A DNA stretch of 64,000 bases. Origin: a virus. Its lineage: Duplodnaviria; Caudoviricetes. A model generated the notes under the pieces. It made no database searches, was not told where the DNA came from, and saw only the letters and a list, made by a program, of their open reading frames with translations. The DNA lies in the IMG/VR virus record IMGVR_UViG_3300048606_000120, positions 45,518 through 109,517 of that record. One strand, written 5' to 3'. The position numbers and the translations under genes are program-made. This document shows positions 9,661 to 57,102 of the stretch, piece after piece. Each line of letters begins with the position of its first letter. The first letter of the stretch is position 1.

Positions 9661-9682
9661 GTTGTAACCTCGAGGTTACAAC
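9661..9682. promoter_or_regulatory. conserved palindrome copy 1 (GTTGTAACCTCGAGGTTACAAC)
   Basis: Perfect 22-bp palindrome between divergent genes. Confidence 0.85.
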
Positions 9683-9741
9683 AAGTTGCGAGTTCAACCC
9701 GCTTCCATTTATTCCCTACTGAGGCACCGAAAAGGATCTAC

Positions 9742-10518
9742 ATGGCTAGAGAGACCGAGCTGACATGTCCATCAGGGTTGCGCGTTCGGCTACGCAGCAT
9801 CAAGGGCAAGGATTTGGACGGGCTGCGCGACAAGCGAAAAGTGGCGACTGGAGAAGCCATAAGCACGCTGTTGAACGAGTGCACGCTCGAGGTTCTTGAC
9901 GCTGCGATCTACAAGGACCTACCGACTGCGTTCAGCTGGGCAGATACGCTGATCGGTGATCGGATGAAGGCGATCGTGGCGTTGCGCCAGGCCACGTCAG
10001 GGGAGGAGTACGATTTCCGGCTGCGCTGTCGTGATCCAGAGTGCAGGGAAATGATCGACTGGACGATCAACTTGAGCGACTTGCCCGAGAAGCGGCTCAC
10101 GCCCGAGAACGCGGCGGTCTTTCTCTCAGGCAACGTGTTCGAGACGCTGATCAACGACACACTTGTGAAGTTCAAGCTGCGGACCGGGCGCGATCAGGCG
10201 AAGCTCCAGAAGCAGATCTTGCAGATGGACGCCGCTGCTCGGGATCACGACAAGAAGAACCGCCAGTCTGCTGAAAACAGAGCTGTGATCGGCGTGTTCG
10301 CTCGGATCATCTCGGTCGACGGTGTGACGAACGTAATGGACTGGCTAGGTGAGCTGGATTTGTCTGAGATCAATCAGCTCTCGAAGGCGATGGATGCTGC
10401 TGACTGCGGCATCGAAACCACGATCCAAGTCGTCTGCGAAAACGTGAACGGGAACGGGTGCGGGTTGAAGCAGGAGGTGGAGCTCCCTTTGGACAGCACC
10501 TTCTTTCAGCAGAGGTAG
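9742..10518 (+). CDS. tail assembly chaperone / T4 gp26-like baseplate hub assembly protein
   Basis: GDR..ALRQATSGEEY...VKFKLRTGRDQ...ELPLDSTFF; directly upstream of tape measure; AAGGA RBS. Confidence 0.7.
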   Translation: MARETELTCPSGLRVRLRSIKGKDLDGLRDKRKVATGEAISTLLNECTLEVLDAAIYKDLPTAFSWADTLIGDRMKAIVALRQATSGEEYDFRLRCRDPECREMIDWTINLSDLPEKRLTPENAAVFLSGNVFETLINDTLVKFKLRTGRDQAKLQKQILQMDAAARDHDKKNRQSAENRAVIGVFARIISVDGVTNVMDWLGELDLSEINQLSKAMDAADCGIETTIQVVCENVNGNGCGLKQEVELPLDSTFFQQR

Positions 10519-10751
10519 ATGCTGAGCCGTTCGACTACCTGTTGTTTTACGACGAAAAAACTGGCGAAAGTCAGTGGTGGGAGATTCGCTTTGCGCTGAT
10601 GTGGATTCAGCACGGCGGCAGCGGACTTGGCATGTCGTACGATCAAGTGAACGACCTCGATGTGATGGAGATCGCGTGGTTGGTCGAGCGAATGCATGAG
10701 CAGCGGAAGATCGAGGTCGAAGCCATGAAAAGAGCCAACCGGAGCCGGTGA
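10458..10751 (+). CDS. second tail chaperone ORF (-1 frame; possible frameshift extension)
   Basis: LGMSYDQVNDLDVMEIAWLVERM motif typical of the small pre-TMP ORF; no good start or RBS. Confidence 0.55.
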   Translation: MRVEAGGGAPFGQHLLSAEVDAEPFDYLLFYDEKTGESQWWEIRFALMWIQHGGSGLGMSYDQVNDLDVMEIAWLVERMHEQRKIEVEAMKRANRSR

Positions 10752-10790
10752 GCATAGGCTGGTGGGCATGCTCACCGCCGCCGCCGCCGA

Positions 10791-10814
10791 AGTTGTAACC
10801 TCGAGGTTACAACT
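10791..10814. promoter_or_regulatory. conserved palindrome copy 2
   Basis: Perfect 24-bp AGTTGTAACCTCGAGGTTACAACT abutting tape-measure ATG. Confidence 0.85.
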
Positions 10815-13139: not shown

Positions 13140-13143
13140 GCCA

Positions 13144-13671: not shown

Positions 13672-14003
13672 CTGTCTTCGAGAAGAGCCGCTTCACGTTC
13701 TGCAACGCCTGGTTCGACGATGCGGGCCGTGTCTTCCTCGACGATCGTGTTCCGTACGGCTATCGAGCGTTCAGCGACAACACGATTCACATCGTGACCG
13801 AAGGCGAAACCATTTGGTCCATCGCTGGCCAGCACTTTCAGCCGACACCTCGAGCGGCCGGCCTCTGGTGGGCGATCGCTGACTTTCAGCCGAACCCGAT
13901 TCATGACCCGACGATCGCTCTGGTGCCTGGCTCTATGCTCGTGCTGCCGAGCCTAAGGACCGTCCTCGAGGAGGTCCTGGGCGAAGCCAGGCGGACTGGA
14001 TGA
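13668..14003 (+). CDS. LysM / gpX-like baseplate protein
   Basis: HIVTEGETIWSIAGQHF..WWAIADF..LVPGSMLVLP. Confidence 0.85.
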   Translation: MTVFEKSRFTFCNAWFDDAGRVFLDDRVPYGYRAFSDNTIHIVTEGETIWSIAGQHFQPTPRAAGLWWAIADFQPNPIHDPTIALVPGSMLVLPSLRTVLEEVLGEARRTG

Positions 14004-15301
14004 GCCGGAATGTTCCCATCATCCAAGTCTCGGTTCAGCCCGAGGGCTCGCCGAAGGTGCGAGTCGACGTGAGCGATCGCGTCATCTCGATGCAGTACCA
14101 GGACTGCGAGCACCAAGCCGACAAACTTGAGCTGACGATCGACAATGAAGATCTGTCCGGCTTCGACGATCCGATTTGGCGCAAGGGCAACATGATCATC
14201 ATCAGCTGGGGTTATCCCGAAGCGATGGCGATTCCGCGCACCTGCCAGATCCGAAAAGTGATGGGCTTCAAGAAGCTGACGATCGAAGCTCTCGGCAAAG
14301 AGGTGCTGCTGAACGTCGAGACCAAGAACCGCGTGTTCGAGAACACGCGGCGCTCTGAGGTGGTGCGGTTCATCGCAGAGGAGTGGGGATTTCGTGAGGA
14401 GGAACTGCTCCACATCCAAGACACAGAGATCGTCCGAGACCACATCGCGCAAGCGCGCATGACCGATGCTCAGTTCCTGCGCCGGCTGGCGAAGAAGGAA
14501 GGCTTCGAGTGGTACATCGACCACGACGGCTTTCACTTCCACGAGCGCGACTTTCTTCAGCGCTCGATTCGCACTCTCGTCTATTACTCGGAGCCAGAAG
14601 GCTCAGAAATCTCGGACATCACGATCGAGAATGACATCACGCGGCGAGCTGGATCGGTGAAGCTCAAGACGCACGTCCCGACTGTGCGCAGGACGATCGA
14701 CCTTGACGCAAACAACCTCAATCAAGGCGATCGACCGGTCCTTGGGACGGTGGTCGAGGCTCCTGGTAAAACGGAAGCGTCGACGCCTGGATTCGGAGGG
14801 ATCGCTCACCACGTGATCGGGTCGACCACGGAGCCGAATGAAGCTGCCGTGAAGCGCCGGGCCGCAGCAGACTTGCGGCTCGCTCAACAGCGCGCTGTGA
14901 AGTGCAACATCACCTTGGCCGGGGATCCCAACATCAATGCCAAGACGGTGATCAACCTGCTTGGCGTCGGCAAGCGTTTGTCGCAGCTCTACTACGTTCG
15001 CGGCACGTCGCACACGATCGATGGGATCTACACGATGAGCCTCGAGTGCATCTCGGACGGCTCGGGCGGGCATTCGACCAAGAGCACGCTTGCGAAGGAA
15101 GCATCTGCCGTGCAGGTTGGGCCAAAGTTGAAGGGAAAGAAGAACCACGCCCCGACCCCTAATCGCTCGATCGACCTAGATGGGAAGCCGCCTGCTGAAG
15201 TTCCAAAGGTGCCGGTCGCGACAAACGCCGCTGATCTGCAAGCCCAAGTTGCGCAGGCGAAGGCAACTCTCGAGGCTCTACAATCGGCGCCTGAGGAGTG
15301 A
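14000..15301 (+). CDS. baseplate hub (late control D-like)
   Basis: ADKLELTIDN, TDAQFLRRLAKKEGF, GDPNINA motifs. Confidence 0.85.
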   Translation: MSRNVPIIQVSVQPEGSPKVRVDVSDRVISMQYQDCEHQADKLELTIDNEDLSGFDDPIWRKGNMIIISWGYPEAMAIPRTCQIRKVMGFKKLTIEALGKEVLLNVETKNRVFENTRRSEVVRFIAEEWGFREEELLHIQDTEIVRDHIAQARMTDAQFLRRLAKKEGFEWYIDHDGFHFHERDFLQRSIRTLVYYSEPEGSEISDITIENDITRRAGSVKLKTHVPTVRRTIDLDANNLNQGDRPVLGTVVEAPGKTEASTPGFGGIAHHVIGSTTEPNEAAVKRRAAADLRLAQQRAVKCNITLAGDPNINAKTVINLLGVGKRLSQLYYVRGTSHTIDGIYTMSLECISDGSGGHSTKSTLAKEASAVQVGPKLKGKKNHAPTPNRSIDLDGKPPAEVPKVPVATNAADLQAQVAQAKATLEALQSAPEE

Positions 15302-15315
15302 TAAGAGGCCTTTCC

Positions 15316-17035: not shown

Positions 17036-17059
17036 AGCAGCGACGTGTTTCGTATTTGG

Positions 17060-17209: not shown

Positions 17210-17285
17210 CGCCAATTCTCCCTAGCCGTCAAGCGGTGCGTGCGCAAGTAGAGAAGGACCTTCCGGATCGTCGATTCTCGTCTGC

Positions 17286-24764: not shown

Positions 24765-25508
24765 ATGGGTCAGCTGGATTGGGGCAACTTGAGCGGCGCT
24801 TTGACGACCGATGATGCCGTCAGCGGTCCCACAGCGGGCACGACTCCGCCGTCAGGCGGAGGAACGTACGTGTTCGGCATGAAGGCCGTGCAGAACGTCG
24901 TCGGGGTTGTCGGCAAGTACTGCTTGCAGACGAACTTTTCACCAACGCTCACCGGGAAAGGTGGGCGCATCTCCGGAGCACTGCGCAAGTCATCCGTCGG
25001 AGCAGCCAGCGGGTTTTCGCCGTTCCTGTTCTTTGCTGCAGGCGGCACAGCGGTCTCTGACAATGCGTACTTGCTGGGCCTGTCGGACGAGAACCCGAGC
25101 CACATCGAGCTGCGCAAGGGCGCTATCTCGGAGGGGCTGCCGGCGATCGTGGCTCTCGATCCCGATGCCAGCCCGAATGTCCTGATGCGCTCGACCGATG
25201 TGTTTCCTGCCGACACGTGGCAGCACCTGCGACTCGACGTGGTGATTCAGGGCACTGGCGACGTCATCTTGCAGGTCTATCGCAGCGACTTGGCCCTGCA
25301 CAACGTCAGCAGCCCCTCCTGGGCGCTTGTGCCGGGCATGGAAGGGCCGCACTACCCAACGTTCGCCGGGTTCGTCGACGACGTCCTGGGCGTCAACACA
25401 GGCTCGCCGCCGTATGCCGCTGGCGGGCGCATCGGCTTCGCATCGCGGTTCAGCACGGCGAACCGGGCGGCCTACTTCGATCAAATTTCGGTCGAACGTC
25501 AACTTTAG
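24765..25508 (+). CDS. hypothetical virion protein (concanavalin-like beta sandwich)
   Basis: TWQHLRLDV...GRIGF...YFDQI pattern. Confidence 0.6.
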   Translation: MGQLDWGNLSGALTTDDAVSGPTAGTTPPSGGGTYVFGMKAVQNVVGVVGKYCLQTNFSPTLTGKGGRISGALRKSSVGAASGFSPFLFFAAGGTAVSDNAYLLGLSDENPSHIELRKGAISEGLPAIVALDPDASPNVLMRSTDVFPADTWQHLRLDVVIQGTGDVILQVYRSDLALHNVSSPSWALVPGMEGPHYPTFAGFVDDVLGVNTGSPPYAAGGRIGFASRFSTANRAAYFDQISVERQL

Positions 25509-25513
25509 AAAGT

Positions 25514-25531
25514 TGTAACCTCGAGGTTACA
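25514..25531. promoter_or_regulatory. conserved palindrome copy 3
   Basis: 18-bp core TGTAACCTCGAGGTTACA in a 26-bp intergenic gap. Confidence 0.85.
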
Positions 25532-25534
25532 GGT

Positions 25535-30975: not shown

Positions 30976-30996
30976 TCCGATTTTTGAAAGGGCACC

Positions 30997-32784: not shown

Positions 32785-32855
32785 CGTTTGCATTCGCTGA
32801 CACTTCCTGGGCGGACGAGACAAGCTGGGCGCCGGAGAGTTGGGTGGCACGAGAG

Positions 32856-33558: not shown

Positions 33559-33616
33559 GGCTCGGAACCCCACTTACCCCAGAATCGAGTGTGCGGTAAA
33601 GTCCGCTCAGTCGAAG

Positions 33617-33636
33617 TTGTAACCTCGAGGTTACAA
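33617..33636. promoter_or_regulatory. conserved palindrome copy 4
   Basis: 20-bp perfect palindrome between divergent operons, just downstream of a -10-like TAAAGT (33597). Confidence 0.85.
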
Positions 33637-33639
33637 GTT

Positions 33640-34169: not shown

Positions 34170-34470
34170 TCCCTCTTTTTCTCTCTTGAACGAGAGTGCA
34201 AGTCCAAGTGGATCTTCTCGGCTGAGCGAAAACGCCGCTGTCGGTTAACTCATGTTCCGAAGGAACATGAGTTGTAGATCGATCAACCCTGAATCTGCTT
34301 CGCTCGCTCCGCTGCGCTCTCGCTGATTCAGAAGATCAAAAACATTCCGGGTTAGGGACTCCCGAAGGGAGAACCGTTAACCCCCGGTGGGGGGTTATTA
34401 GGGGGGAGGGACGTCGGTTTGTAAAGCGCAAACTGACATGCCCGATCTCGATTTCTGCAAAACTAAAATC
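34170..34470. other. structured non-coding region, candidate replication origin or ncRNA
   Basis: No ORF; multiple inverted repeats (34247-34273, 34359-34371, 34378-34397). Confidence 0.5.
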
Positions 34471-34488
34471 TGTAACCTCGAGGTTACA
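34471..34488. promoter_or_regulatory. conserved palindrome copy 5
   Basis: 18-bp core immediately before MazG ORF. Confidence 0.85.
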
Positions 34489-34490
34489 AC

Positions 34491-35123
34491 TTGTCCCTCC
34501 TGAGCTCGACGACGAAGTCGGTGCTCATGAAAGACGACGACCAAATCGTAAGAGCAGAAAATGCGGCGTGGTGGGAAGAGGAAGCTCGGTTCCAGAAACT
34601 CGCGGCTCGATGCGAGAGCATCTCGCTCGCTCACGGTTTTGCGAAAACGACGTGGGAGAACCTGCCGGCCAACCTGATGTTCATCGTCACGGAGGTAGAC
34701 GAGGCCTTTCACGCCCCGACCCGCGATGCTTTTTACGAGGAGCTCGCAGACATCGCGATCCGGATCCTCGTGCATCTCCATGCGCTGTGGGGTCCATGCT
34801 GGAGCTTGCGCCGCGCGGCGAACACGGCTCGTGTCGAGTGGCCGTATCCGGGCCTGCTTTACCACCCGCACTTGGTGTCGGTTGATCCGACGGTTGGCTT
34901 GCGGCTGGTGATCAACCGCGTTTGTGAAGCCGCGAAGTCGTGGCGTCTGGGCCATGGCCAAGTGGTGCAGGCCGACGTGCGAGTCTGCCTCGAGCAAGCG
35001 CTTGCGCAGTGCTTGAGCGTTACCAAGATGTGCGGGATCGACGCGCAGCGGGAGATCGACGCGAAGTGCGCGAAGAACGAAGGGCGGCCCCATCTGCATG
35101 GACGGCTCGAGGTGATCGGGTGA
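34491..35123 (+). CDS. MazG-like nucleotide pyrophosphohydrolase
   Basis: LMFIVTEVDEA..EELADIAIRI; C-terminal K..KNEGRP..HG. Confidence 0.8.
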   Translation: MSLLSSTTKSVLMKDDDQIVRAENAAWWEEEARFQKLAARCESISLAHGFAKTTWENLPANLMFIVTEVDEAFHAPTRDAFYEELADIAIRILVHLHALWGPCWSLRRAANTARVEWPYPGLLYHPHLVSVDPTVGLRLVINRVCEAAKSWRLGHGQVVQADVRVCLEQALAQCLSVTKMCGIDAQREIDAKCAKNEGRPHLHGRLEVIG

Positions 35124-36613: not shown

Positions 36614-36979
36614 GTGAGCACTGACGATGACTTCGAAGCTCGTGATGGCGACGTGTTGGTGGTTTCGTATCCTGAGGTGAAGATCCCGCTCGCTACGAAG
36701 TACAGCACTGTCACGATCGGCGGGCTGATCTACACGCGGCAGTTGCGCAGCAAGGACAGCCCGACCGAGGAATACCAGCGGGTCTACGCGTTCTTGAGGC
36801 ACATGGCAGAGGCTGACGCTCGCGCGAAGGTGCAGCAGTGGACCGAGGAGCTTGCGGCAAAGCGACCGCCACCGCTGCCGACGGCTCCGAAGCCGGTGGG
36901 TGAAGTTGTAACCTCGAGGTTACAACCCAGCGCAGCAGCTCCTGGCGGCGTCGTGCGGCCGAAGCCGGTGAGTCGGTGA
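36614..36979 (+). CDS. hypothetical protein
   Basis: GAGG RBS; contains palindrome copy 6 in frame (EVVTSRLQP). Confidence 0.65.
   Translation: MSTDDDFEARDGDVLVVSYPEVKIPLATKYSTVTIGGLIYTRQLRSKDSPTEEYQRVYAFLRHMAEADARAKVQQWTEELAAKRPPPLPTAPKPVGEVVTSRLQPSAAAPGGVVRPKPVSR
36905..36926. promoter_or_regulatory. conserved palindrome copy 6 (intragenic)
   Basis: Perfect 22-bp copy within Pro-rich tail, about 50 bp upstream of next gene. Confidence 0.85.
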
Positions 36980-40134: not shown

Positions 40135-40160
40135 GAGTTGTAACCTCGAGGTCACAACTC
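40135..40160. promoter_or_regulatory. conserved palindrome copy 7 (one mismatch)
   Basis: GAGTTGTAACCTCGAGGTCACAACTC, intergenic, upstream of -10-like TACCAT (40173). Confidence 0.8.
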
Positions 40161-43090: not shown

Positions 43091-43993
43091 ATGAGGATGC
43101 GAGTCCGTCGAGCAGTTTCTCCCGATCAGCTTACTTTGCCCATCGTCGGAGAGCTGGCGGAACGACCGTTTGCTGGTCGCATGCGAGTTCGGCGCGATGT
43201 TCAACTGCTGGAGTTGCTGCCGAAGCAGTCGCCCGCGAACGATTCGCCGAAGAAGAGTTGGAAAGGGGATCTGCATGCTGTGAAGCAAGGCAAGCTGCAG
43301 TTTGCGGTGTTGGCCAAGCGGCATCGCGCACTCATGTGCGCGATAGCTCGACCGTGGCTAGGCAGGTGTCCGCCGAACGTGGGTCTAGAAGATTTGGCTC
43401 AAGAGATCTTGCTCGAGGTCTGGCAGGCGATCGAAGTTTGGGATTCGGAGCGAGGTACGCCTTTGCTCAACTATGTTCGGGGGCGGATTCGTCATCGCAT
43501 GCTCGCTTTCACTCACAAGTTGATTCGCGGCAGCGAGAAGGACGGGCGATATCTTCTGCAGCAGATCATCGAGGAGAAGGTGGTCAAGGTTTACGGCGCA
43601 GGCGAGCATCCCGAGCAGTTGGATTTCGTGCCTGTCACGCTACCAGTGGACGACGATTGTGACGTCGCGCAGCTGGCGGCGTTAGTTGTCGGAGGATTAC
43701 CTTCCAAGCAGGCGCGTGTGGTTGCAGGGTTGCTCACTGGTGAACAAACCGACTCAGTCACCGAACGCGTCTATGGTAGTAAATGTAAGCTGCAACGAAA
43801 AGCTGCACTTCGTGCGTTCGCAGCGGCAACTGCTCTCGTACACTCTTCTGGAGAGCCAGAAGAAAATGGTCAAAGGACGAAAGAAACTCATGCGCACCAA
43901 AGCACCACCTGCTCCCGCAGCAAAGAAAACTTCTCGGCCGCCGGCAGCAGTCGCCAGCAAGCCACCTGCGCCTCTCACCTTGGTCAAGGGTAA
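43091..43993 (+). CDS. sigma-70 family sigma factor
   Basis: EDLAQE..VWQAIEVWDSERG.PL.NY...I region 2; degenerate region 4. Confidence 0.75.
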   Translation: MRMRVRRAVSPDQLTLPIVGELAERPFAGRMRVRRDVQLLELLPKQSPANDSPKKSWKGDLHAVKQGKLQFAVLAKRHRALMCAIARPWLGRCPPNVGLEDLAQEILLEVWQAIEVWDSERGTPLLNYVRGRIRHRMLAFTHKLIRGSEKDGRYLLQQIIEEKVVKVYGAGEHPEQLDFVPVTLPVDDDCDVAQLAALVVGGLPSKQARVVAGLLTGEQTDSVTERVYGSKCKLQRKAALRAFAAATALVHSSGEPEENGQRTKETHAHQSTTCSRSKENFSAAGSSRQQATCASHLGQG

Positions 43994-45008
43994 TCGGACC
44001 ATGGTCCTTGCTGACGGCAAGACTCGGGCGAACCCAGAGGTGATGCGCAAGGCGGCGAAGGTTCTTGGGGTAAAACTGCCGAGCGTTCGTGGGGCGAAGT
44101 CTGATCAAGAGTTGCTGGGAAACCTGCGATTGGAAGTCAGCAAGCGGGTTGCGAAGCTGGATGTAGGCGATCACGTCAAGTGTGGCGTCTGCGGCGAAGT
44201 GGCGACCGACGACACGCCGTACTGCCCGTTTTGCGGCGATGAAGGCACCACCGAAGAGGCAGCTGCAGCGGCAACCGGAGCAGCGATCGTGCCTGCCGCT
44301 GTGGGGGTGGGAATCGCCAAAACTCCTGTGCCGACCGCGAACGTCGAGGTCGCAACTGTGGTGCTCGCTCAGGACTTGGATGCTCTGCTCGAGAAGATCC
44401 GAGAGCTGAAGCACGCGCAAGTCAGCATGTCGTATGAGATCGGCGTGCTCTGCAGAGAGATTCGCGACAAGCAGCTTTACAAAGCGCGTGAGTACAAGAG
44501 CTTCAGTGCGTTCGCTGCCAAGGAGCTGCCCTTCGCGCGTGAATCTGCGTTGAGCCTGATCGCGATCGTCGAAAAGCACACGAAGGAGGATTACGACCGG
44601 ATCGGCTACGCCAAGCTGCGGGTCATATTGGCCGTGAATGACGATGCGGCCAAGACTGAGCTGCTCAGCGCGGCTCGCGAGGGCGCTACCACGAAGCAGC
44701 TGACCGAGCGTGCAGCGCGAGCCAGCACGCCGCCGAAGAGGCTGTCATCCGGGCCCGAGAAGGAGAAGGGCGAGAAGATCACCCTCCTCGGCAGGATCGG
44801 CGCGCGCAATCAGGTGGTGCGCTTCCACGATCTGAAGACTCAAGAAGTCATCGAGTCGGTTGGCACGTTCAAAAACGTCTCGGCTGATGTTTACGGCGAG
44901 CTCGAGATCGCTGACGGTGTGTTCGTGCAGATCGGTTTGCGCGTGAGCGACGAGAAGGAGCTCAAGGGTTTGACGGTTCGGTTTGTCCGACCGACCGCTG
45001 ACGAGTGA
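43866..45008 (+). CDS. putative DNA-binding protein (zinc ribbon plus DUF3102-like domain)
   Basis: CGVC..CPFC; EIG..REIRDKQLYK..YKSF..F...EL. Confidence 0.6.
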   Translation: MVKGRKKLMRTKAPPAPAAKKTSRPPAAVASKPPAPLTLVKGNRTMVLADGKTRANPEVMRKAAKVLGVKLPSVRGAKSDQELLGNLRLEVSKRVAKLDVGDHVKCGVCGEVATDDTPYCPFCGDEGTTEEAAAAATGAAIVPAAVGVGIAKTPVPTANVEVATVVLAQDLDALLEKIRELKHAQVSMSYEIGVLCREIRDKQLYKAREYKSFSAFAAKELPFARESALSLIAIVEKHTKEDYDRIGYAKLRVILAVNDDAAKTELLSAAREGATTKQLTERAARASTPPKRLSSGPEKEKGEKITLLGRIGARNQVVRFHDLKTQEVIESVGTFKNVSADVYGELEIADGVFVQIGLRVSDEKELKGLTVRFVRPTADE

Positions 45009-48703: not shown

Positions 48704-50254
48704 ATGACGGCAGAAGCAGGGCTTGGGATCGCTGCGTTCTTGAAGCACAACAGCGACGCTGGCGGCGGCGGACAATGGCTTCGGCAGTGGCGCAAGAAGG
48801 GCGTCGGTGAGGTCACGATTTGGCTGCACACGCTAGCTCCGATCGTGCCGTGCTTCAGTCACTCGTTCATGTTCGAGGACGAGTACGAAGACAAGCAGAC
48901 CGGCAAAACGACGCCGACTCTTCGTTACCCGCGCTTCGTTAGTCCGGATGCTGAGATCGTTCACCGAAATCAGTACTTCCGGAACGACGACGGAACGATG
49001 CAAGTTCCTCCGGATCTAGACCCGTTCTTGCTGTTGCGTGAGTGGCTGCGTTTCGGCGCCGAGCACCTCAGTCTCGAAGAGCCGATTTTCAAGTGGCATG
49101 ACGCAAAAGAGCGGCGTGATGTCGTGTGGGAGCGCGGCGAGCTAAGTGGGCTGGTCAAGCGCGGTCAGAAGAACTTTGGGCATTCGCTCGACACAAAGCT
49201 TGAGTACATTTACGTCGTCGTCGACAACGATGCCGTGAGCGAAGGCCCTGTTTTGGCGCGTGAAGGGAAGCTCGTCAGCCAGAAGATTGGGGAAGTCATT
49301 AAGCAGCAACAGAAGCAGTGGGGCGACAAGCAAGGCGATCCGCTGCAGCACCCGTATGCATTCCAGCTAGTCGGCGAGGACGCGTCATCGCCGATGAACG
49401 CTTACAAAGCGTTCAAAGCAGAGCGGGCCGAGTTTACCGAAGAAGTTTGGGCGCAGATTTCGTGCGAAGACTTCCCAGATCCGTTGAAGCATGGGCAGCC
49501 GGTCGAAGGCGACATGGAGAAGCTTCGCGAGCTGTTCGAGCAAGCGGCGCAAGTGGAGCTGCCAATCGATCAGATCTTCTCGGACGATCCCGCAGTGCGA
49601 CGCGATCTGACGCGAAACACAGGCGGCAATCGGCCAGCGCCACGAGCATCGAAAGCGTCGGCGACAAAGGTTGCTGCTCCGACTCAAGCTCAGCGTCCTC
49701 CAGTTCCGCAGCGAGGCGGAAAGCCAGCGGCTGCAGCAGCTCCTCAGACGAACACTGGTGCGCCTCAGGTGCGCCGCAAGAAGGTCGATAAGCCGGCTGA
49801 GCCGCCGCCTCCAGAAGTGGAGGTCATTCCTTGCGCTGATTGTGGCAAGGACATGCTTGCAACAGACACGAAGTGTTCGTCGTGCGGCGCAGAGTACGAG
49901 CTGATCGTCGACGAAGCACAAGCGGCGGTTGCAGTACCAACGCTGCCGGCTGCGAATGCGAACGGGAAGCCGAGTACAAGCACGAAGCCAAAGTCGGCGG
50001 CAGCGCCTAAGCCGATTCCTGCAGCGTCGCCGTCCTCGAGGCAGCCGTCCTTGCCGCACACCGATTCGGCGCAAAAGGAAGTTGTAGCCAACTGCTGGTC
50101 GTGTGGAGCTTTGCTCAACGGCAAAGACAACTGCCCGTCGTGCGGCATCGAGCAAGGAGATGATCTTCCGTTCATTTTCAACGAGTGTGAAAGCCAACTC
50201 AGCGGCATCGGGGAGCGATGGAACTCCAAGCTCACTGCTCGTCAAATCATCTGA
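48704..50254 (+). CDS. putative ssDNA-binding protein with zinc ribbons
   Basis: Position before RecA, low-complexity linker, DDLPF motif near C-terminus. Confidence 0.55.
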   Translation: MTAEAGLGIAAFLKHNSDAGGGGQWLRQWRKKGVGEVTIWLHTLAPIVPCFSHSFMFEDEYEDKQTGKTTPTLRYPRFVSPDAEIVHRNQYFRNDDGTMQVPPDLDPFLLLREWLRFGAEHLSLEEPIFKWHDAKERRDVVWERGELSGLVKRGQKNFGHSLDTKLEYIYVVVDNDAVSEGPVLAREGKLVSQKIGEVIKQQQKQWGDKQGDPLQHPYAFQLVGEDASSPMNAYKAFKAERAEFTEEVWAQISCEDFPDPLKHGQPVEGDMEKLRELFEQAAQVELPIDQIFSDDPAVRRDLTRNTGGNRPAPRASKASATKVAAPTQAQRPPVPQRGGKPAAAAAPQTNTGAPQVRRKKVDKPAEPPPPEVEVIPCADCGKDMLATDTKCSSCGAEYELIVDEAQAAVAVPTLPAANANGKPSTSTKPKSAAAPKPIPAASPSSRQPSLPHTDSAQKEVVANCWSCGALLNGKDNCPSCGIEQGDDLPFIFNECESQLSGIGERWNSKLTARQII

Positions 50255-50255
50255 A

Positions 50256-51392
50256 ATGCCAAAGCTTCGAAAAAAAGTGGCAGCTGTAGCTGACCCTGTG
50301 GAGCGCGATGCTGTTCCGTTGCCGCTGCGTCGGGCTATGCCGCTTCCGAAGAACTGGCAGCGAGCCGATGAAGCTCTCGATAAGATCGAGTCAGTCTCGA
50401 CGATCTTCCCAGACTTCAATCGAGCAACGCGATGCGGCGGGCTGCCGGTCAATCGGATGCATACCGTACATGGACCTACACATGGGGGAAAGACCGCATT
50501 TGTTTTAGGCTTAGCGAAGAGCTTCCTCGACGGCGGTCATTCGGCTGCATACGTGGATGCCGAGCACGCTACCGCGCACGAGTTTGCCAGCGAGCTGCTC
50601 GGCGAGCTGAAGCAGCACGATCGTTTCTTCGGTCGAGTGCCAGCCACCTATGAAGAAACGATCGACGCGGTCGACGAGTTCCTCAAGATGATGACTGAGT
50701 TTCGGAAGGACTCGCCCGAGACAAAGTCGATCGTCTTGGTCGACTCGATCAATAAGCTCACGCCAGAGCGCGAGCTCAAGAACGTGTTGAAGAGTGGCGG
50801 CGAGGAGGTCAGCAAAGGTCATGCTGGTCGCTATCGAGCTGCGGTCAATAAGTCATGGCTCGATCACCTGTCTCCTCGGCTCAAAGCAGCTGGCTGCGCG
50901 ATGGTGTTCATTGCTCAAGAGCGGGAAGGCTCAGACGACAAGCCTTGGGATGCCGACGGTGGCGTGGAGATCAAAGGCGGCGAGGCACTGTCGTACGACG
51001 CTTCGTTGCTCATCCGCGTCAGCAAGGCTTTTCCGATGCGCGATCCTTCGACCGCGGCAAAGGATTACCCAAAGGGGAAGATCATCGGCTTCCAGCATCG
51101 CGTGCGCATCTACAAATCGAAGGTCTCCCACATGGATGGAGCTTTCACCGACTGTGTTTACCACTTCAGCAATGGCACGCAGACGCCGCCCGGGTTCGAC
51201 TTGCAACGTGATGCGATCTACGTAGCGAAGGAGCTTGGGCTCGTGCAGGTGAACGGCTCGTGGCTGAGCTGGAAGAAGCATCGATGGCAGGGCGAGATGA
51301 AGGCCGCTCAGTGGCTCGCTGAAAACCAACTTGCTTTGTTCGGCATGGTGAAAGAAGTCGAAGAGCGCTTGGCCGCTGATCGGAAGCGATGA
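50256..51392 (+). CDS. recA: RecA/UvsX-like recombinase
   Basis: GGLP, GPTHGGKT, YVDAEH, LVDS, IAQER, GG.AL.Y.A. Confidence 0.92.
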   Translation: MPKLRKKVAAVADPVERDAVPLPLRRAMPLPKNWQRADEALDKIESVSTIFPDFNRATRCGGLPVNRMHTVHGPTHGGKTAFVLGLAKSFLDGGHSAAYVDAEHATAHEFASELLGELKQHDRFFGRVPATYEETIDAVDEFLKMMTEFRKDSPETKSIVLVDSINKLTPERELKNVLKSGGEEVSKGHAGRYRAAVNKSWLDHLSPRLKAAGCAMVFIAQEREGSDDKPWDADGGVEIKGGEALSYDASLLIRVSKAFPMRDPSTAAKDYPKGKIIGFQHRVRIYKSKVSHMDGAFTDCVYHFSNGTQTPPGFDLQRDAIYVAKELGLVQVNGSWLSWKKHRWQGEMKAAQWLAENQLALFGMVKEVEERLAADRKR

Positions 51393-52147
51393 GGATCCTC
51401 ATTTTCAGCGACATTCACCTCGATGCGGTGACTGCTGGCAATCCGCGCAAGCAGGAAGTGGTGGAGTTCCTCCGGCACGTGCAGCAAGCAGCTACCGCCC
51501 ATGAAGTCGATCTCGTCATCTTCAGCGGCGACGCGCACGACTCGGGATGGCTGCTCGATCCGCTCTATACAGCCGAGCTGATCTGGGGTTTGTTGTCGTT
51601 CAAGCAAGATGTCATCGCGGTCGCAGGAAATCACGATGTTGTCGACACGTCCGAGCTCTTCGACGGTGAGCCGGTCACGACGCTTACGCCGTTGCGGGTT
51701 GCCAGCAAGTTCACGCCGCAGCTTCAGCGCCGATGCTTCGTTGCCGATCGTCCCAAGCTCGTGAAGATCTCGGCTAAGTGGGCAGTGCTTTGTCTGCCGT
51801 ACGTGTCGAGAGTTCACAGCAAGGTGAGCGGGGAGTGGCTCGAGCACGCGGTTGTTGAGGCGGCAGAGTTTGGGCAAGGCGGCGGCAAGCTGATCGTTGT
51901 CGGGCATCGCGTCGTGCCTGGCGCCGTGATGGGCAGCGAGTCGGCCGAGATGGCGAAGGGACAAGACCAGATGTTTCCGTTCGCAGAAGTCGCTCAGCTG
52001 CAGCCAGCTGTCGTGATCAACGGCCACTACCACGCGCGTCAGGTCGTGCGGGTAGAAGGGCTGGAGGTGAACATTCCAGGCGCGCCGTTGCAGTTCACTT
52101 TCGGTGAGACCGAGGAGCCAAAAGGCGTCACGGTGATGCAGCTATGA
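51389..52147 (+). CDS. sbcD: SbcD/Mre11-like metallophosphoesterase nuclease
   Basis: SDIH, GD, GNHD, GHYH. Confidence 0.88.
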   Translation: MRILIFSDIHLDAVTAGNPRKQEVVEFLRHVQQAATAHEVDLVIFSGDAHDSGWLLDPLYTAELIWGLLSFKQDVIAVAGNHDVVDTSELFDGEPVTTLTPLRVASKFTPQLQRRCFVADRPKLVKISAKWAVLCLPYVSRVHSKVSGEWLEHAVVEAAEFGQGGGKLIVVGHRVVPGAVMGSESAEMAKGQDQMFPFAEVAQLQPAVVINGHYHARQVVRVEGLEVNIPGAPLQFTFGETEEPKGVTVMQL

Positions 52148-52539
52148 GGATTCGGACCAAGCGGCTAGACAGCCAAGCTGCTCAGTTCATCGATTTCGAC
52201 CACCCAGCGATGGTCATCCTACGTGAGATCGATGGAACCCACATTGTCAGCGGGGCTTACGTGAAGTTCGCTCCGACGGTGCGAGCGTCCGAGCGAGCGG
52301 CGATTGACGCTAAGGCCATTCGCGAGCGCCTGCTGGCTGCTGGTGCCGTCGCGGTCGTAGTGGCTCCGGTCATAGTGCCAGACTCGATCAAAGGCCGGCA
52401 GCAGCCCGACAAGCCGGCTGTGCTGGATTCTGAGATGTACCTGCGGGAGTGGTTCGCTCTTGTGCGTGGGCTGCCGCAAGACGTGGTTGAGTTGGCTATG
52501 CCGGAAGCGCTTGCGAGCGTGCGGGAAGCCGGGCTGTGA
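52144..52539 (+). CDS. hypothetical protein (possible split SbcD C-terminal part)
   Basis: Coupled between SbcD and SbcC. Confidence 0.55.
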   Translation: MRIRTKRLDSQAAQFIDFDHPAMVILREIDGTHIVSGAYVKFAPTVRASERAAIDAKAIRERLLAAGAVAVVVAPVIVPDSIKGRQQPDKPAVLDSEMYLREWFALVRGLPQDVVELAMPEALASVREAGL

Positions 52540-54482
52540 GGATTGAGTGGCTGGAGATCGAGGGGTGGATGCCCTTTGCCGAATGGTTCCGGCTGAACCT
52601 GCCGGCAGGGCCGATCGCGGTCATCGGTTCGCACAGCGGCGATCCTCGACGCAGCAACCGTGCCGGCAAGACGGCGCTGCTCGAAGCGATCACGTGGTGC
52701 CTGTACGGCGAGCACCGCAAGCGGCTCGATGACGACGTCATCCACAAGCAGTGCTCGTTCTGCAAAGTGTCGATTGGCCTGGGGAGCCGGAAATCAGACT
52801 CGTCGTACCTCATGGTCGAGCGCTCCCGCACGCGAAGCAGCAGCACAAAGCTCGTGGTGTCGACGATGACCGAAGAGTTCGTCGGCGACGCGGCGCAAAA
52901 CGCAATCGTGCGGGCGGTCGGCATTGGCTTCGACGACTACACCGCGACGAGGTGCTTTCGGCAGGGCGAAGTGGCGGACATCATCGATCGCAGCCCAAGT
53001 GAGCGGCTTTCGTTGGTGAGCGAGTGGTTGCAACAGAGCCGCTGGTTCATCGCCAAGAAGCTGCAAGCCGCCAAGTCGAACGCCGCTGACGCAAAGCTTG
53101 CCGAGGATCGTGCCGCGCTCGCGACAGCTGCCGGCTACCTCTTGGCCGAGCCCGATCGTGAGGCAGCTGAGAATGAGCTCGCGCTGGCGTTTCGGGGAGT
53201 TGTTGATGACGAAGCCGAGATCACAGAGCTGTCAGCTAAGCTGATGCAGCTGGCCGAAGCAGAAGCGCAGCGCTCTCAGCATGTCGAGATGAAGCAGCTG
53301 CGCGTTCAAGCCGCTGACTTGCGAAAGCAGTTGGTCGGGCGAGTCAACGCTAGCCAGCGAAAGGCTCAAGCCGGCCAAAACCTCGCCGACAAGCAAGAGG
53401 CTGTTCAAGCTGCGAAAGTGGCCGTAGACAAGCTCGTGCAGGTCCGGCGAGCCGGCTTCGACGGGATCTGTCCGGTCACTTGCGAGGCATGTCCTGTGGC
53501 GGAGGAGGTGACGGCAGCCGCCAGGGCCGCGAACGAGCTGCTGAGCGTGCGCACCGCTGCTCACGAAGCAGCAGCAAAGCAGATGCCTCCTGCAATGCTT
53601 GAGGCAGCCGCGGCGAACTCAGAGGTGATCGCTCTCGATCGAGTTGCTGCTCGCTACCAGCAAGTCGTCGAGCGCGGCAAAGAGCTAGCCGCGACGCTTC
53701 CGCCGCTGAGCGATGAGGAGGTCCCCTCGGCTGAGCCGCTCAAGCAGCGTCTCGAAGAGCTGCGGCAGCGCTCCTCGGAGATGTCCAGGCGCGTCGGCGA
53801 GCTCGAGAGCATGCTCGCTGCCGCGACGTGGAATAACGCCCGTCACGCCCAGCTGCAGGCTGCTGAGCGGGAGTCGGATCGAGCGGCGCTCGTCAGCCGC
53901 TTGGCGCTGCGGGCCATCTCCAGCGTGCCAGCACGCATCGCCGCCGAGCAGCTCGACGAGTTGGAGCTTGAGGCGAATCAGCTGCTCGAAGGAACCGGCG
54001 TGAGCCTGCGGTTCTCGTGGACGCGCGAGCTCGGCAACAAGTCGCCCGTCTGCGAGGAGTGCGGCTACGTCTACCCGAGCAAGCGCGGCGACACGTGCCC
54101 GACCTGCAGCGCCGTTCGCGGTAAGAAGCGGGCTCAGGAACTCGAGATCCTGTGCGATGACGGCTCGGGCGTCGAGGAGGACGTGCGCTTCAACAGCGGC
54201 GGCACGCGAGCGATCGTTGGCTCAGCAATCCGGCTCGCTGCTTCGGCGATGCTGACTCGGCTCAGGTCTTCGCGATCAGCCTGGGCGATCGTCGACGAGC
54301 CGTTCGGTTCGCTGGACGTCGAGAACCGGGAGCAGCTCGCCCGCACGTTCGCTGGCATGCTCGGCAGCGTCGGGCTGGAGCAAGCCCTCATCGTGTCACA
54401 CGACCCTGCGCTGCTTACCGCGTTGCCCAACCGGATCGTAGTCGACAAAGATGGCGCCGCCTCCACAGCGAGGGTCGAGTGA
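52536..54482 (+). CDS. sbcC: SbcC/Rad50 SMC-like ATPase
   Basis: NRAGKT, Q-loop, coiled coil with Cys hook, SGG, IVDEPFGSLD, VSHD. Confidence 0.9.
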   Translation: MRIEWLEIEGWMPFAEWFRLNLPAGPIAVIGSHSGDPRRSNRAGKTALLEAITWCLYGEHRKRLDDDVIHKQCSFCKVSIGLGSRKSDSSYLMVERSRTRSSSTKLVVSTMTEEFVGDAAQNAIVRAVGIGFDDYTATRCFRQGEVADIIDRSPSERLSLVSEWLQQSRWFIAKKLQAAKSNAADAKLAEDRAALATAAGYLLAEPDREAAENELALAFRGVVDDEAEITELSAKLMQLAEAEAQRSQHVEMKQLRVQAADLRKQLVGRVNASQRKAQAGQNLADKQEAVQAAKVAVDKLVQVRRAGFDGICPVTCEACPVAEEVTAAARAANELLSVRTAAHEAAAKQMPPAMLEAAAANSEVIALDRVAARYQQVVERGKELAATLPPLSDEEVPSAEPLKQRLEELRQRSSEMSRRVGELESMLAAATWNNARHAQLQAAERESDRAALVSRLALRAISSVPARIAAEQLDELELEANQLLEGTGVSLRFSWTRELGNKSPVCEECGYVYPSKRGDTCPTCSAVRGKKRAQELEILCDDGSGVEEDVRFNSGGTRAIVGSAIRLAASAMLTRLRSSRSAWAIVDEPFGSLDVENREQLARTFAGMLGSVGLEQALIVSHDPALLTALPNRIVVDKDGAASTARVE

Positions 54483-55216
54483 CTGAGGTGATCGGGCTGG
54501 ATGTCTCGCTGAGAGGCCTCGGAGTCTGCATCGTGAACGGCGATCCGAGGCAGAAGGTGGGCGATGGGCTCGACTTCGATTCGGCCTTGTTCCGAGCTGG
54601 CGAAGACGTCGATGGACCGCGTCGGCTGTCGGTCGTGTCGAACGCAGTTTGGTCTTGGCTCGATGCTCGCGACGTTGTTGGTCCAGGTAGGGTCTACGTG
54701 ATGGAGGGCTACGGGTTCGCGTCGCAGCAAGCGCACTCGCTTGGCGAGATCGGCGGCTGCATTCGAAAGATGATCTGGGAGAGCGGCGGTAATCTCGTGG
54801 TCATTCCGCCGGCAACTTTGAAGAGGTTCCTCACGGGTAAAGGGACCGGCGACAAGAACATCGTGATGAAGTGGTTGTTCAAGCGGTGGGGATTCGACGA
54901 GGACGAGGACAATCAGTGCGACGCGTTCGGCTGCGCGGTGGTCGGGCTGATCGATCTCCATGAAGACGATTGGTCAAAGATGGAGCACGACATCCTCACG
55001 AAGAAGGTGGAGCGGTATGCGGGTCAGGGTCAAAAGGATTGGCACGGCGGAGGTTCGACCCGGAAGGTGGCAGGACGTTCTGGCAGACGAGCGCGCGGAC
55101 GTGCTGATCTCGGATCCGCCCTACTCAAAGAAGACGTGCAAGGGACACAACGCGGGCGACGAGATGGTTCGCGACGGGGTGCAGCGCCGAAAGATTGGTT
55201 ACCAGGCGTGGAGTGA
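54479..55216 (+). CDS. RuvC-like Holliday junction resolvase
   Basis: IGLDVS, MEGY, LKRFLTGKG..DK, NQCDA. Confidence 0.85.
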   Translation: MTEVIGLDVSLRGLGVCIVNGDPRQKVGDGLDFDSALFRAGEDVDGPRRLSVVSNAVWSWLDARDVVGPGRVYVMEGYGFASQQAHSLGEIGGCIRKMIWESGGNLVVIPPATLKRFLTGKGTGDKNIVMKWLFKRWGFDEDEDNQCDAFGCAVVGLIDLHEDDWSKMEHDILTKKVERYAGQGQKDWHGGGSTRKVAGRSGRRARGRADLGSALLKEDVQGTQRGRRDGSRRGAAPKDWLPGVE

Positions 55217-55802
55217 GCCCGACGTCGTCGAGTTCGTCGAGTCGTGGTCGCCGCGCATTCGGGGTTGGTTCGTTGTGTTCACCGATCACAAGCTCATGCC
55301 GTTCTATGAGCGCGAGCTGGAGAACGCCGGTCGGCTCGTGTTCGCGTCGTTGCCGTATGTCGAACCCGGCATGACGGTGCGACGGCAGGGCGACGGGCAT
55401 TCGAGTTGGACGAGCTACGTGATCGCAGCTCGTCCACGTACTCGCGAGTTTTTGCGTTGGGGCACGCTGCGCGGCGCGTATATCTTGCCGCCGGGGCACA
55501 AGGAGAAGCGGTTGATTATGGGTCAGAAGACCCAATGGGTGATGCGAGAGGTAATCAAGGACCATAGTCGTTCGGGCGATTTGATCGTTGACCCGTGCTG
55601 CGGATCGGGCAGCACGCTGGTAGCAGCTGTAGGGTTGGGGCGAAATGCACTCGGTGCAGATGGGGATCAGCGTGCAATCGACATCGTCAGAACGAGGTTA
55701 CCCAATGGGATGCGTGCTGATGGCGGACGTAGTCGCGTTCGCCAAGAAGTGGTTGGAGGCGGGTTCGCAAGTCGTTCAGTTCTGGGCGACGTGGGAGGGT
55801 AA
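55017..55802 (+). CDS. N6A/N4C DNA methyltransferase (beta class)
   Basis: DPPY before DPCCGSGST; GGAG RBS before ATG 55017. Confidence 0.88.
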   Translation: MRVRVKRIGTAEVRPGRWQDVLADERADVLISDPPYSKKTCKGHNAGDEMVRDGVQRRKIGYQAWSEPDVVEFVESWSPRIRGWFVVFTDHKLMPFYERELENAGRLVFASLPYVEPGMTVRRQGDGHSSWTSYVIAARPRTREFLRWGTLRGAYILPPGHKEKRLIMGQKTQWVMREVIKDHSRSGDLIVDPCCGSGSTLVAAVGLGRNALGADGDQRAIDIVRTRLPNGMRADGGRSRVRQEVVGGGFASRSVLGDVGG

Positions 55803-56127
55803 GGCGGGGGAGTTCTTCGAGGTGGGCCGCTCTGGGAAACCGCTCATTGAGGCGGATTCTGATGTGTTGCACGGGGTGATGACAGTCGTTTGTTGCGTGT
55901 GCTTTGGTGACGCGAGCGAGGTGAAAGCTGGCATGCGGGTAGCGACTCCGCGCGTGCTGTCGATCTGCTCAACGTTGCTCAGTCACCTGCAGCAGTTCGC
56001 AGTGGTGATCGAAGCAGAGACGCGGTTTCGGGCGAGAGAGCTTGCGACCGATTGGTCGTTGTATTCACAAAACGGAAAGATGGTAGTGCGGTCCGAATTT
56101 CGCCGCACAGGGGAGACAGAACATTGA
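55720..56127 (+). CDS. hypothetical protein
   Basis: ATG 55720, co-directional. Confidence 0.55.
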   Translation: MADVVAFAKKWLEAGSQVVQFWATWEGKAGEFFEVGRSGKPLIEADSDVLHGVMTVVCCVCFGDASEVKAGMRVATPRVLSICSTLLSHLQQFAVVIEAETRFRARELATDWSLYSQNGKMVVRSEFRRTGETEH

Positions 56128-56726
56128 AGCCAGTGATGCCTGAGAAATACGTCGATGGTGTGCAGGTTGAAGAGGGCGGGAAGCTGTCGGCCCATGACAT
56201 CCTTGCGCAGCATGTCACGAACGTCTCGCCTGTGACCGCGAAGGCGATCGCACGAGCGCTCCAAGAGCATGAGGATTCGCAAGCGCTGCAGGAGGAGAAC
56301 GAACGGCTCAGGCAAGAGCTGAGCATCGCCCACGAAGGTCTCGGGTCGATGGAGTGGAACGAAGCTGCTTGGAAGGACTTCCTCGACGCAGGAAAGCTGC
56401 GCGATGAGCTGGCCCGCGTGAGTTTGGAGCGGGACAAGTGGAAGCGGGAAGCCGAAGAGGCTCGCCCGTCCAAGAACGACCTGATCGAGGCGCTGAACTC
56501 TGTGACTGATCTGAGGTACGCAATCGAGCTGCTGGAGACGTTTGCTCGAATGGCAACGACAGCAGCGGCACGACTGGAGCAGGTCCAAGTGGTGCCGCCA
56601 AAAGAGTCGTGGCGCCCGCCCTCGTCGAATCCGCCGGCTCCTGCTCTTACTCGGGCGTCGACTCGCCCATCAGCTCGATCGTCGTCACATCCGCCCAAAG
56701 TCGAGACTCACACGAACGGGACTTGA
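56124..56726 (+). CDS. coiled-coil hypothetical protein
   Basis: GGGAG RBS, coupled start. Confidence 0.6.
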   Translation: MKPVMPEKYVDGVQVEEGGKLSAHDILAQHVTNVSPVTAKAIARALQEHEDSQALQEENERLRQELSIAHEGLGSMEWNEAAWKDFLDAGKLRDELARVSLERDKWKREAEEARPSKNDLIEALNSVTDLRYAIELLETFARMATTAAARLEQVQVVPPKESWRPPSSNPPAPALTRASTRPSARSSSHPPKVETHTNGT

Positions 56727-56729
56727 GGA

Positions 56730-57086
56730 ATGGCAGAAGTAGCGGCTGTGTTCATCGCGCAAGGCTGGTCAGATCAGACGTTCATGAGGATGTGGGTGAA
56801 GATGTTGGTGAAGAAGCCGACCATGGTTCTTGCGACAGACGACGTCACGGATGGCAACTCGGTGCTCTTGAGGCAGCTCAGGTGTTCGGGCATCGTGGCC
56901 GCGGTGGTTCGGATTCCAGGAGTCATGCGATCTGCAGTCGAGCTTGCGCGGGCTCGACTGCAGCGAGACTCAGCGATGGCCGAGCTTGCCACGGTGATCT
57001 ACGACTTCGGCGAGATGCCGGGAGGAGTGGAGCGGTTCGCCGGCAAGCAGACGATCGTCGTGGAGCGGCTGTCGGGCAAGTTGTAA
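56730..57086 (+). CDS. hypothetical protein, possibly degenerate SLOG/YspA-like
   Basis: RDSAMAELATVIYDF resembles RN..M...A..+IAF. Confidence 0.4.
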   Translation: MAEVAAVFIAQGWSDQTFMRMWVKMLVKKPTMVLATDDVTDGNSVLLRQLRCSGIVAAVVRIPGVMRSAVELARARLQRDSAMAELATVIYDFGEMPGGVERFAGKQTIVVERLSGKL

Positions 57087-57102
57087 CCTCGAGGTTACAA
57101 CT
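57079..57102. promoter_or_regulatory. conserved palindrome copy 8
   Basis: Perfect 24-bp copy overlapping the TAA of 56730-57086. Confidence 0.85.

Follow-up and report, generated by a model that had tools for sequence, protein, structure and literature searches.

Lineage-specific palindromes dispersed through a clade of large tailed phages, and a candidate ParB-like protein that may dock on them

Results

We analyzed a 64,000-nucleotide stretch of viral DNA (Duplodnaviria; Caudoviricetes), positions 45,518 to 109,517 of IMG/VR record IMGVR_UViG_3300048606_000120 and here called the window, with respect to a family of near-identical palindromes scattered over it, mostly at gene borders. The window makes up the final 64 kb of the record, which we refer to as G0; the record measures 109,517 bp and has a terminal repeat of 127 bp. 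This myovirus-like genome, with a G+C content of about 60%, carries identifiable structural genes (tape measure, baseplate J, and capsid) and a set of replication and repair genes (SNF2/ResIII helicase, DnaB, primase, UvrD, PolB, RecA-like, SbcCD-like, and RuvC-like), and it encodes a tyrosine integrase and a small serine recombinase as well. No cultured relative was found in the phage collection by DNA, and the DnaB and UvrD proteins gave distant matches only.

Allowing up to three mismatches, our search for the 20-bp core TTGTAACCTCGAGGTTACAA located eight copies in the window (Table 1), compared with none in 100 dinucleotide-preserving shuffles. All eight palindromes named in a preliminary description of this DNA were thus recovered, although its coordinates proved to be off by 0 to 3 bases. 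Five copies are perfect over 20 bp, while three differ at one base; the single mismatch previously assigned to the copy near 40135 is real, but two other copies deviate as well. The CTCGAG center, which had been described as invariant, is indeed the same in every window copy, and the flanks lengthen the core to a 24-bp palindrome of the form (A/G)AG-core-CT. The whole G0 record holds 14 copies, with all 14 left arms and 12 of the right arms intact, and only three isolated half-sites.

Table 1. Palindrome copies and the candidate docking protein in the window
Feature	Coordinates	Core	Strand	Remarks
Palindrome copy	9660..9683	9662-9681		Perfect 20-mer; directly upstream of baseplate-hub-like open reading frame (ORF)
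Palindrome copy	10791..10814	10793-10812		2 nt ahead of tape-measure ATG
Palindrome copy	25511..25534	25513-25532		Last base G
Palindrome copy	33615..33638	33617-33636		First of pair upstream of replication module
Palindrome copy	34468..34491	34470-34489		First base C; second of pair, past 300-nt lower-G+C noncoding stretch
Palindrome copy	36904..36927	36906-36925		In frame, C-terminal tail of 121-amino-acid (aa) ORF
Palindrome copy	40136..40159	40138-40157		Reads GGTCACAA; between primase and UvrD
Palindrome copy	57079..57102	57081-57100		Its TAA terminates ORF 56730-57086
Candidate reader, 380-aa core protein	43866..45008		+	N-terminal helices and zinc ribbon, ParB-type helical domain, C-terminal beta domain
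Predicted ParB/KorB/Noc-type DNA-binding domain	44316..44765		+	AlphaFold2 (AF2) domain model, Foldseek, VIA-align

By our own, rough reading of the ORFs, 13 of the 14 copies are either located between ORFs or share bases with a start or stop codon; within the window this holds for seven of eight, with the remaining one in frame, just as had been proposed. In three copies, read in the frame AAG TTG TAA, the TAA terminates the ORF that lies upstream. In five copies, the start codon of the next gene follows 1 to 6 nt past the palindrome, which therefore places its internal GAGG at Shine-Dalgarno distance; this GAGG of the 3' arm lies 7 to 12 nt ahead of the start codon at five sites, the tape-measure gene included. 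The copy at 25511 sits tightly between two ORFs: the stop of ORF 24765-25508 precedes it by 4 nt, and the TTG that opens ORF 25535-26020 follows by 2 nt. A weakly coding minus-strand ORF begins 5 nt to the left of the copy at 9660. As for the neighboring genes named earlier, the identities of the tape-measure and UvrD genes were confirmed, but the assignment of MazG is weak (E value of 9e-4, below our cutoff). The in-frame copy (core at 36906) encodes EVVTSRLQ in a proline-rich C-terminal tail, 54 nt before the ORF stop, and is an insertion compared with the orthologue in the nearest relative, G1.

Relatives were found via DnaB and the candidate protein of Table 1; whole records were fetched, and repeated palindromes were sought de novo. 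In 10 of the 11 related records compared (G0 to G10), this revealed a family of G+C-rich palindromes of 16 to 24 bp, present in 6 to 26 copies (Table 2), whereas the unrelated loci that we checked showed no such families. The dedicated phage cis-element system that had been suspected to span the late and replication modules of the window thus extends over the entire genome and is a trait of the clade, with each lineage using a sequence of its own. It even reaches G7, whose genes in common with G0 are limited to the replication module, TerL, and a few others.

Table 2. Repeated palindromes in G0 and related records
Record	Length	Motif	Copies
G0	109.5 kb	AGTTGTAACCTCGAGGTTACAACT	14
G1	110 kb	CGTGTGGCCCCGGGGCCACACG	13
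G2	87 kb	GCGTGTCTTCGTCGGAGACACGC	17
G3	65-kb fragment	GAGTCTCCCCGGGGAGACTC	6
G4	107 kb	AGTTGTCGCCCCGGGGCGACAACT	12
G5	113.5 kb	CGTGTTCACCCGGGTGAACACG	21
G6	106 kb, 40% G+C	No dispersed family; end-clustered repeats only	
G7	92 kb	CCACCGCACGGCGCCGTGCGGTGG	26
G8	73-kb fragment	G1's motif	7
G9	94 kb	AGTTGGGCGCCCAACT	8
G10	81 kb	CGTYTACCCGGGTARACG	13

Every even-length motif has CpG at its center, and the frame (T)GT-nn-CC-yC|G is common to most of the motifs, which differ among phages whose G+C contents span 40 to 69%. Among the G1 copies, TGTAG and TGTAA are rare arm variants, and precisely these act as stop codons. One of these sites is syntenic with the G0 copy at 57079, keeps the TGTAAT arm, and likewise gives the stop, so at least this one site predates the split between G0 and G1 and has changed in place; the G1 copy before the tape-measure gene is syntenic with the G0 copy at 10791. 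The motif of G2 is a quasi-palindrome with the same T/C asymmetry in 14 of its 17 copies, which point both ways among same-strand genes (3 versus 8). Half-site variants of G10, on the other hand, assort freely (TT, 3; TC, 9; CC, 1).

Repeats of other kinds were seen in two of these records. G1 contains a second repeated palindrome, CGCTCGAGA...TCTCGAGCG, with four copies within 3 kb near one end (L003, record 2405-5190). The end repeats of G6 (L061-L066; 0 to 5.5 kb and 97 to 106 kb) comprise about 20 copies of AGATCT-N9-AGATCT and 7 of TTACAC-N5-GTGTAA.

Placement was pooled over seven genomes, again with rough gene calls. Although 69 to 89% of each genome is called coding, only 33 of 109 copies lie deep inside an ORF call; examples are found in the coiled coil of SbcC in G7 and in a linker of the candidate reader protein in G2. 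Divergent gaps, to which several copies had been assigned, are about twice as common among occupied junctions as in the background, but this enrichment is soft because several minus-strand ORFs beside G0 sites score weakly as coding. Certain junctions recur. The one upstream of the SNF2 helicase is occupied in all seven genomes, usually by a pair of copies bracketing a lower-G+C noncoding stretch (770 to 1,100 bp apart in G0, G1, G3, and G4, SNF2/ResIII helicase). The junction after PolB is occupied in five of seven genomes, as are sites around TerS/TerL, while one head-gene junction is occupied in four and the primase/UvrD junction in three (G0, G5, and G7). By our arithmetic, four junctions are occupied in at least four of the seven genomes, compared with about 0.5 expected under uniform placement. 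These recurring junctions hold copies of differing sequence.

Copies also cluster in long noncoding regions. A 1.2-kb noncoding hub in G2 (L012, record 69670-70910), which adjoins the TerS-like gene, holds four copies in a mirror arrangement, two in each orientation, and resembles an origin, pac, or control region; many short repeats of the GTGCTCGG type were noted in this hub as well. About half of the G0 sites border differences in gene content relative to G1, and a DUF7768 cassette is flanked by sites in G0 and lies next to a site at another place in G1. In G7, 13 of the 26 copies follow a stop codon by 2 to 9 nt. Five of the 26 (L067-L071, e.g., 2631, 17954, 24975, 36822, and 50875) form the center of longer, copy-specific palindromes with 4 to 9 extra pairs; two of these nested copies have A/T runs like those of bidirectional terminators, as if the core had been put into preexisting hairpins.

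A host REP-type repeat or an assembly artifact, either of which had been named as a possible refutation, was ruled out by the scarcity of the exact 18-mer of G0 in databases. It is not found in other IMG/VR contigs, gives four single matches in 185,579 species genomes (596 Gb; about nine expected by chance), and gives 11 single matches in metagenome contigs, so that it is at chance level in both collections. One of the 11 contigs (L020) is related to the G0 phage: it carries CTGTAACCTCGAGGTTACAG at the equivalent place, where a ParB-N-like gene with no more than about 50% identity has its 5' edge. An unrelated, low-G+C contig with a chance match (L018, Ga0307487_1001906) turned out to have a palindrome of its own, GCCGTTGCAACGGC, in four copies within 14 kb.

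The protein that we consider the best candidate for binding these sites, judged from a predicted fold and from its distribution, is a conserved 380-aa protein (Table 1). Orthologues are present in all related records, and in every relative the gene lies between UvrD and PolB. Its N-terminal part consists of short helices plus a CxxC...CxxC zinc ribbon, and a profile search of PDB sequences gave no match. Since the model of the whole protein was poor, with a predicted local distance difference test (pLDDT) score of 60 and no Foldseek match (VIA-align still put Spo0J first, with a Z value of 7.5), a domain-only model was needed. The AF2 model of the central domain, built from a 17-sequence alignment, reached a pLDDT of 82. 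The top 10 Foldseek matches of this model are all Noc, ParB, or Spo0J structures, several of them solved in complex with their sites (probability of 0.8 to 0.99, TM score of about 0.5, E value of 0.4 to 0.8). A comparison with 48,161 chains by VIA-align placed ParB-parS (Z value of 7.2), Spo0J (6.2), KorB (6.1 and 5.6), and SopB (5.5) among its top six, all under the aligner's caution line for helical proteins. The match to a ParB-type fold thus agrees across two aligners and two models, and it is at this level, that of a predicted fold, that the protein can be said to have a ParB-type helix-turn-helix (HTH) domain.

The central domain is present in all 10 palindrome-bearing records, although in G10 it is visible by eye only. 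The 245-aa orthologue in G6 is without exactly this domain, and G6 is also without dispersed palindromes. G1 and G8 share both recognition helix and motif, while the other genomes differ in both. Because a search of five genomes for ParB_N (PF02195) gave no match and the N terminus is a zinc ribbon, the protein is not a canonical ParB, although it may function in the manner of a ParB's DNA-binding half. No ParA-type ATPase turned up among the roughly 90 ORFs scanned, in which no search aimed at ParA was made.

Other potential readers were rejected. The small ribbon-helix-helix (60056) and HTH (61414) proteins of the preliminary description have no family matches and no detectable orthologues in palindrome-bearing relatives; across these two and about 90 other ORFs, Pfam and PHROGs gave no DNA-binding family for small proteins, most of which are dark matter. 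The third protein named there, the DUF3102-like one, is the candidate discussed above; it gained support from fold and phyletic distribution, whereas the resemblance to DUF3102 found no match in Pfam. A TerS-like HTH protein, near whose gene sites cluster in G2 and G5, is undetected in G7 despite its 26 sites. The tyrosine integrase and the serine recombinase were set aside because their phyletic distributions do not follow that of the palindromes. The serine recombinase gene of G0 lies outside the window (record 179-868, L029:179-868; Resolvase E value of 8e-33), and its G1 orthologue (100046-100732) is inserted between the TerS-like gene and TerL.

A ParB-like protein next to a site (G0 31218-31763) matches only PHROG 620, a methyltransferase-type domain; it corresponds to the N-terminal domain of an N6/N4 methyltransferase in G1 and G2 and is undetected in G4, and it therefore cannot be the universal reader. 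In this region of G0 (record 30849-33023, L030:10849-13023), the order is ParE-family toxin gene, palindrome, ParB-N-like gene, and C5-methyltransferase-like gene. The ParB-N-like protein of G0 has a zinc ribbon at its C terminus, while the fused methyltransferases of G1 and G2 show the DPPY motif.

Discussion

Our data are consistent with the palindromes being double-stranded DNA docking sites for a dimeric, phage-encoded protein, forming a KorB/Noc-like network with lineage-specific specificity. We consider the chances for and against this reading to be about evenly balanced. Of the three mechanisms put forward initially, protein docking sites, whether parS-like or stoperator-like, fit best, while hairpin or processing sites have lost ground. 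The near-identity over a fixed 20 to 24 bp, including the center, speaks for docking, as do the flanks, which add no further complementarity in G0 to G5. What we infer here comprises the binding itself, the geometry of the dimer, and the regulatory outcome.

In this scenario, each half of the dimer would read one 9- to 12-bp arm, in the frame given above, across the central CpG. Positioned at about 14 gene or operon borders, the protein would act like KorB on IncP plasmids or Noc on chromosomes, that is, as a genome-wide regulator or organizer whose most plausible effect is to repress transcription, or block it, where modules meet. Its most conserved target would be the start of the replication module, the only position occupied in all genomes compared. 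What docking achieves could be repression or a roadblock, genome organization, or a link to replication. Protein and sites would coevolve, giving rise to a private sequence in each lineage.

Several observations weigh against this reading. The constant T/C asymmetry of G2 is not predicted by a simple homodimer model, in-frame copies in disordered linkers look more like tolerated insertions than selected operators, and many G7 copies abut stop codons, with five nested in longer hairpins and two of these accompanied by T-runs. With respect to the candidate protein, there is no Pfam match, including none to ParB or DUF3102, and the fold scores are moderate (Foldseek E values of 0.4 to 1; Z values of 5.5 to 7.2, below the line mentioned above). 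No site adjoins its gene in G0, the negative control for the pairing of domain and palindromes is a single genome, G6, and any core gene would show most of the same phyletic pattern.

A more specific proposal, which we advance tentatively and to which we would give somewhat less credence than to its negation, is that this clade of roughly 100-kb phages runs a minimal ParB-like system without a CTPase, in which a zinc-ribbon reader and 6 to 26 lineage-private palindromes provide control or organization of the whole genome. KorB occupies 12 OB operators on IncP plasmids (RK2); there as here, about a dozen sites are spread over a replicon of roughly 60 to 110 kb, many of them at promoters or gene borders. 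Both parS and NBS have a central CpG, within TGT...ACA ends in parS and a CCCGGG center in NBS. The likeness to ParB-parS, Noc-NBS, KorB-OB, and SopB-sopC lies in the predicted DNA-binding fold, on which two aligners agree, and in the known readers of those systems being dimeric and acting on short perfect palindromes. Unlike in those systems, the phage candidate has a zinc ribbon in place of the CTP-binding ParB/Srx N-terminal domain, and the phage sites are longer (18 to 24 bp), with a specificity private to each lineage. A separate ParB-N-like protein does exist in the phage, but its domain is of the methyltransferase type described above.

Among phages, the stoperators of Cluster A mycobacteriophages (L5 gp71 type) form sets of tens of near-identical sites on both genome arms, mostly in short intergenic gaps (PMC6550527, PMC9283540), and their genome-specific motifs at syntenic sites track the repressor (PMC6550527). 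They are, by analogy, a documented precedent for lineage-own motifs at syntenic positions. Stoperators are, however, 13 bp long, asymmetric, orientation biased, and read by a monomer in temperate phages (PMC6550527, PMC9283540), whereas the sites described here are perfect palindromes without orientation bias and also occur in records without an integrase: this enzyme is encoded by G0, G1, and G4 but not by the complete records G5, G6, and G7, and no immunity repressor was recognized in our scans. Closer in form is the 17-bp dyad repeat of Cluster O mycobacteriophages, TGTTCGGNNNCCGAACA, which is found in more than 30 invariant copies per genome and not in the host (PMC4351075). Many of its copies are intergenic or near gene ends, some lie within genes, and recombination between copies makes insertions and deletions; the authors suggested a dimeric protein, and the function of the repeat is not known (PMC4351075). 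The outer arm of this repeat is shared by the G5 motif TGTTCACCCGGGTGAACA, but Cluster O is a different phage group whose repeat has a variable 3-bp center, and neither a reader nor a series of lineage-specific variants has been described for it. PeSL cassettes of T4-like phages are also repeated, lie at gene borders, and mark gene gain, loss, and exchange (PMC2839356, PMC4122927), yet these are composites of about 70 bp, made of a promoter and a stem-loop and confined to hyperplastic regions, rather than short perfect palindromes.

Instead of acting as DNA, the palindromes may act in mRNA as hairpins with a stem of 9 to 10 bp and a 4-nt loop, serving as terminators or attenuators, 3'-end stabilizers, processing sites, or occluders of the Shine-Dalgarno sequence, possibly recognized by a phage RNA-binding factor. 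We regard this as unlikely but as an alternative to be taken seriously, given that the stems are stable in the five genomes folded (G0 to G4; -12.5 to -17.8 kcal/mol), that half of the G7 copies closely follow stops, some with the extended stems and T-runs noted above, and that the 3'-arm GAGG of G0 is well placed before five start codons. Ordinary hairpins, however, are free to differ from one another, whereas here both loop and stem are invariant among the copies of each genome. Intrinsic (Rho-independent) terminators were rejected for G0, whose stable stems are not followed by a U-tract or T-run, even though two G7 copies do have T-runs; a terminator scan was at chance, flagging one G0 copy on the minus strand only. 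One-sided variants break pairs as often as they yield G-U, and our tests for G-U wobble and strand bias revealed no bias, with small numbers. Furthermore, the copies of G2 occur in both orientations among same-strand genes, the spacing to start codons varies in G1, some sites seem, on weak gene calls, to occupy divergent gaps, and Rfam gave no match. As for promoters, a sigma-70 scan near the sites was at chance, and a scan for T7-type RNA polymerase promoters gave no match, as was also the case for its positive control.

Alternatively, and in our judgment improbably, the palindrome may be a selfish miniature repeat of the REP/RPE type, spreading by insertion or conversion, surviving at places where it is harmless, and acquiring any function secondarily. 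The near-identity of copies, the insertion of the 36906 copy into a disordered tail, the variable linkers that host the other in-gene copies, the fixed asymmetry of G2 in both orientations, the nesting of G7 copies centrally in longer palindromes, and the gene-content differences around G0 sites, with the site-flanked DUF7768 cassette, would all be accounted for by such spreading. REP/REPIN-RAYT elements are likewise short, species-specific, near-identical extragenic palindromes, but here the palindromes are perfect and without a conserved 5' tetranucleotide, there is no host repeat, and a search of five genomes for a RAYT/Y1 (HUH) transposase (PF01797) gave no match. The motif is abundant in none of the 185,579 species genomes, and a 20- to 24-bp unit would still need a coevolving, sequence-specific mobilizer. 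Selfish spread also fits poorly with the excess of shared junctions and with the freely assorting half-sites of G10, in contrast to G2. Sites of a host factor, such as a global regulator or a LexA-like protein, or a borrowed host repeat would let each motif mirror its own host, and the differing motifs of phages of differing G+C content, possibly with different hosts, are compatible with this. We nevertheless find it very improbable, considering the count of the 18-mer in species genomes, which does not exceed chance, and the fact that L020, whose proteins are about 50% identical, has the G0 motif, in contrast to the similarly distant G1; the motif frame shared across hosts argues for a phage-borne reader. 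The explanation that we find hardest to credit is that of crossover sites for a site-specific recombinase, used for inversion or cassette exchange, even though the layout of 11 bp, CG, and 11 bp resembles hix, gix, or res site I. The gene for the 229-aa serine recombinase ends 31 nt short of a palindrome in G0, and in G1 and G8 it is located about 190 to 270 nt past one, and tyrosine integrases occur in G0, G1, and G4. Yet the serine recombinase is not found in G2 to G7, G9, or G10, nor the integrase in G5 to G7, and all of these but G6 have palindromes; orientation-free dispersed sites would, moreover, scramble essential modules, while 70 kb are collinear between G0 and G1.

Iterated phage palindromes such as those of Cluster O have long been seen without explanation. 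Here, the phenomenon is seen as a clade-wide trait whose sequence is specific to the lineage; its positions recur, and there is a concrete candidate for the reader. If the pairing of protein and sites holds, it would offer a naturally occurring set in which to examine switches of DNA specificity among ParB-fold proteins, reveal a genome-wide layer of control or organization in large phages that operates without the CTP switch, and supply a kit of orthogonal protein-operator pairs. A system without a CTPase would, in turn, give a function to a DUF3102-like class of dark-matter proteins and would account for unexplained palindromes of the Cluster O type, with a switching of specificity like that of immunity or incompatibility groups. 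Since the sites coincide with places of gene gain, loss, and movement, they also bear on the origin of phage mosaicism.

Other features of the genome

The 952-aa UvrD-type helicase encoded at 40230-43088 of the window matches SPO1-group helicases in two or three pieces; its gene probably carries an intein, because the matching SPO1-group relatives are annotated as intein containing. A recombination set is arranged in a row at 50103-55216, comprising RecA/UvsX-like (50103-51392), SbcD-like (51389-52147), SbcC-like (52536-54482), and RuvC-like (54479-55216) genes, and the pair of conserved "minus-strand ORFs" at 50511-51329 merely shadows the RecA-like gene. ARAGORN called a tRNA-Gly(CCC) at 13980-14053, overlapping the start of ORF 14000-15301; this is probably a false call, since no tRNA in the window reaches the gathering score of Rfam.

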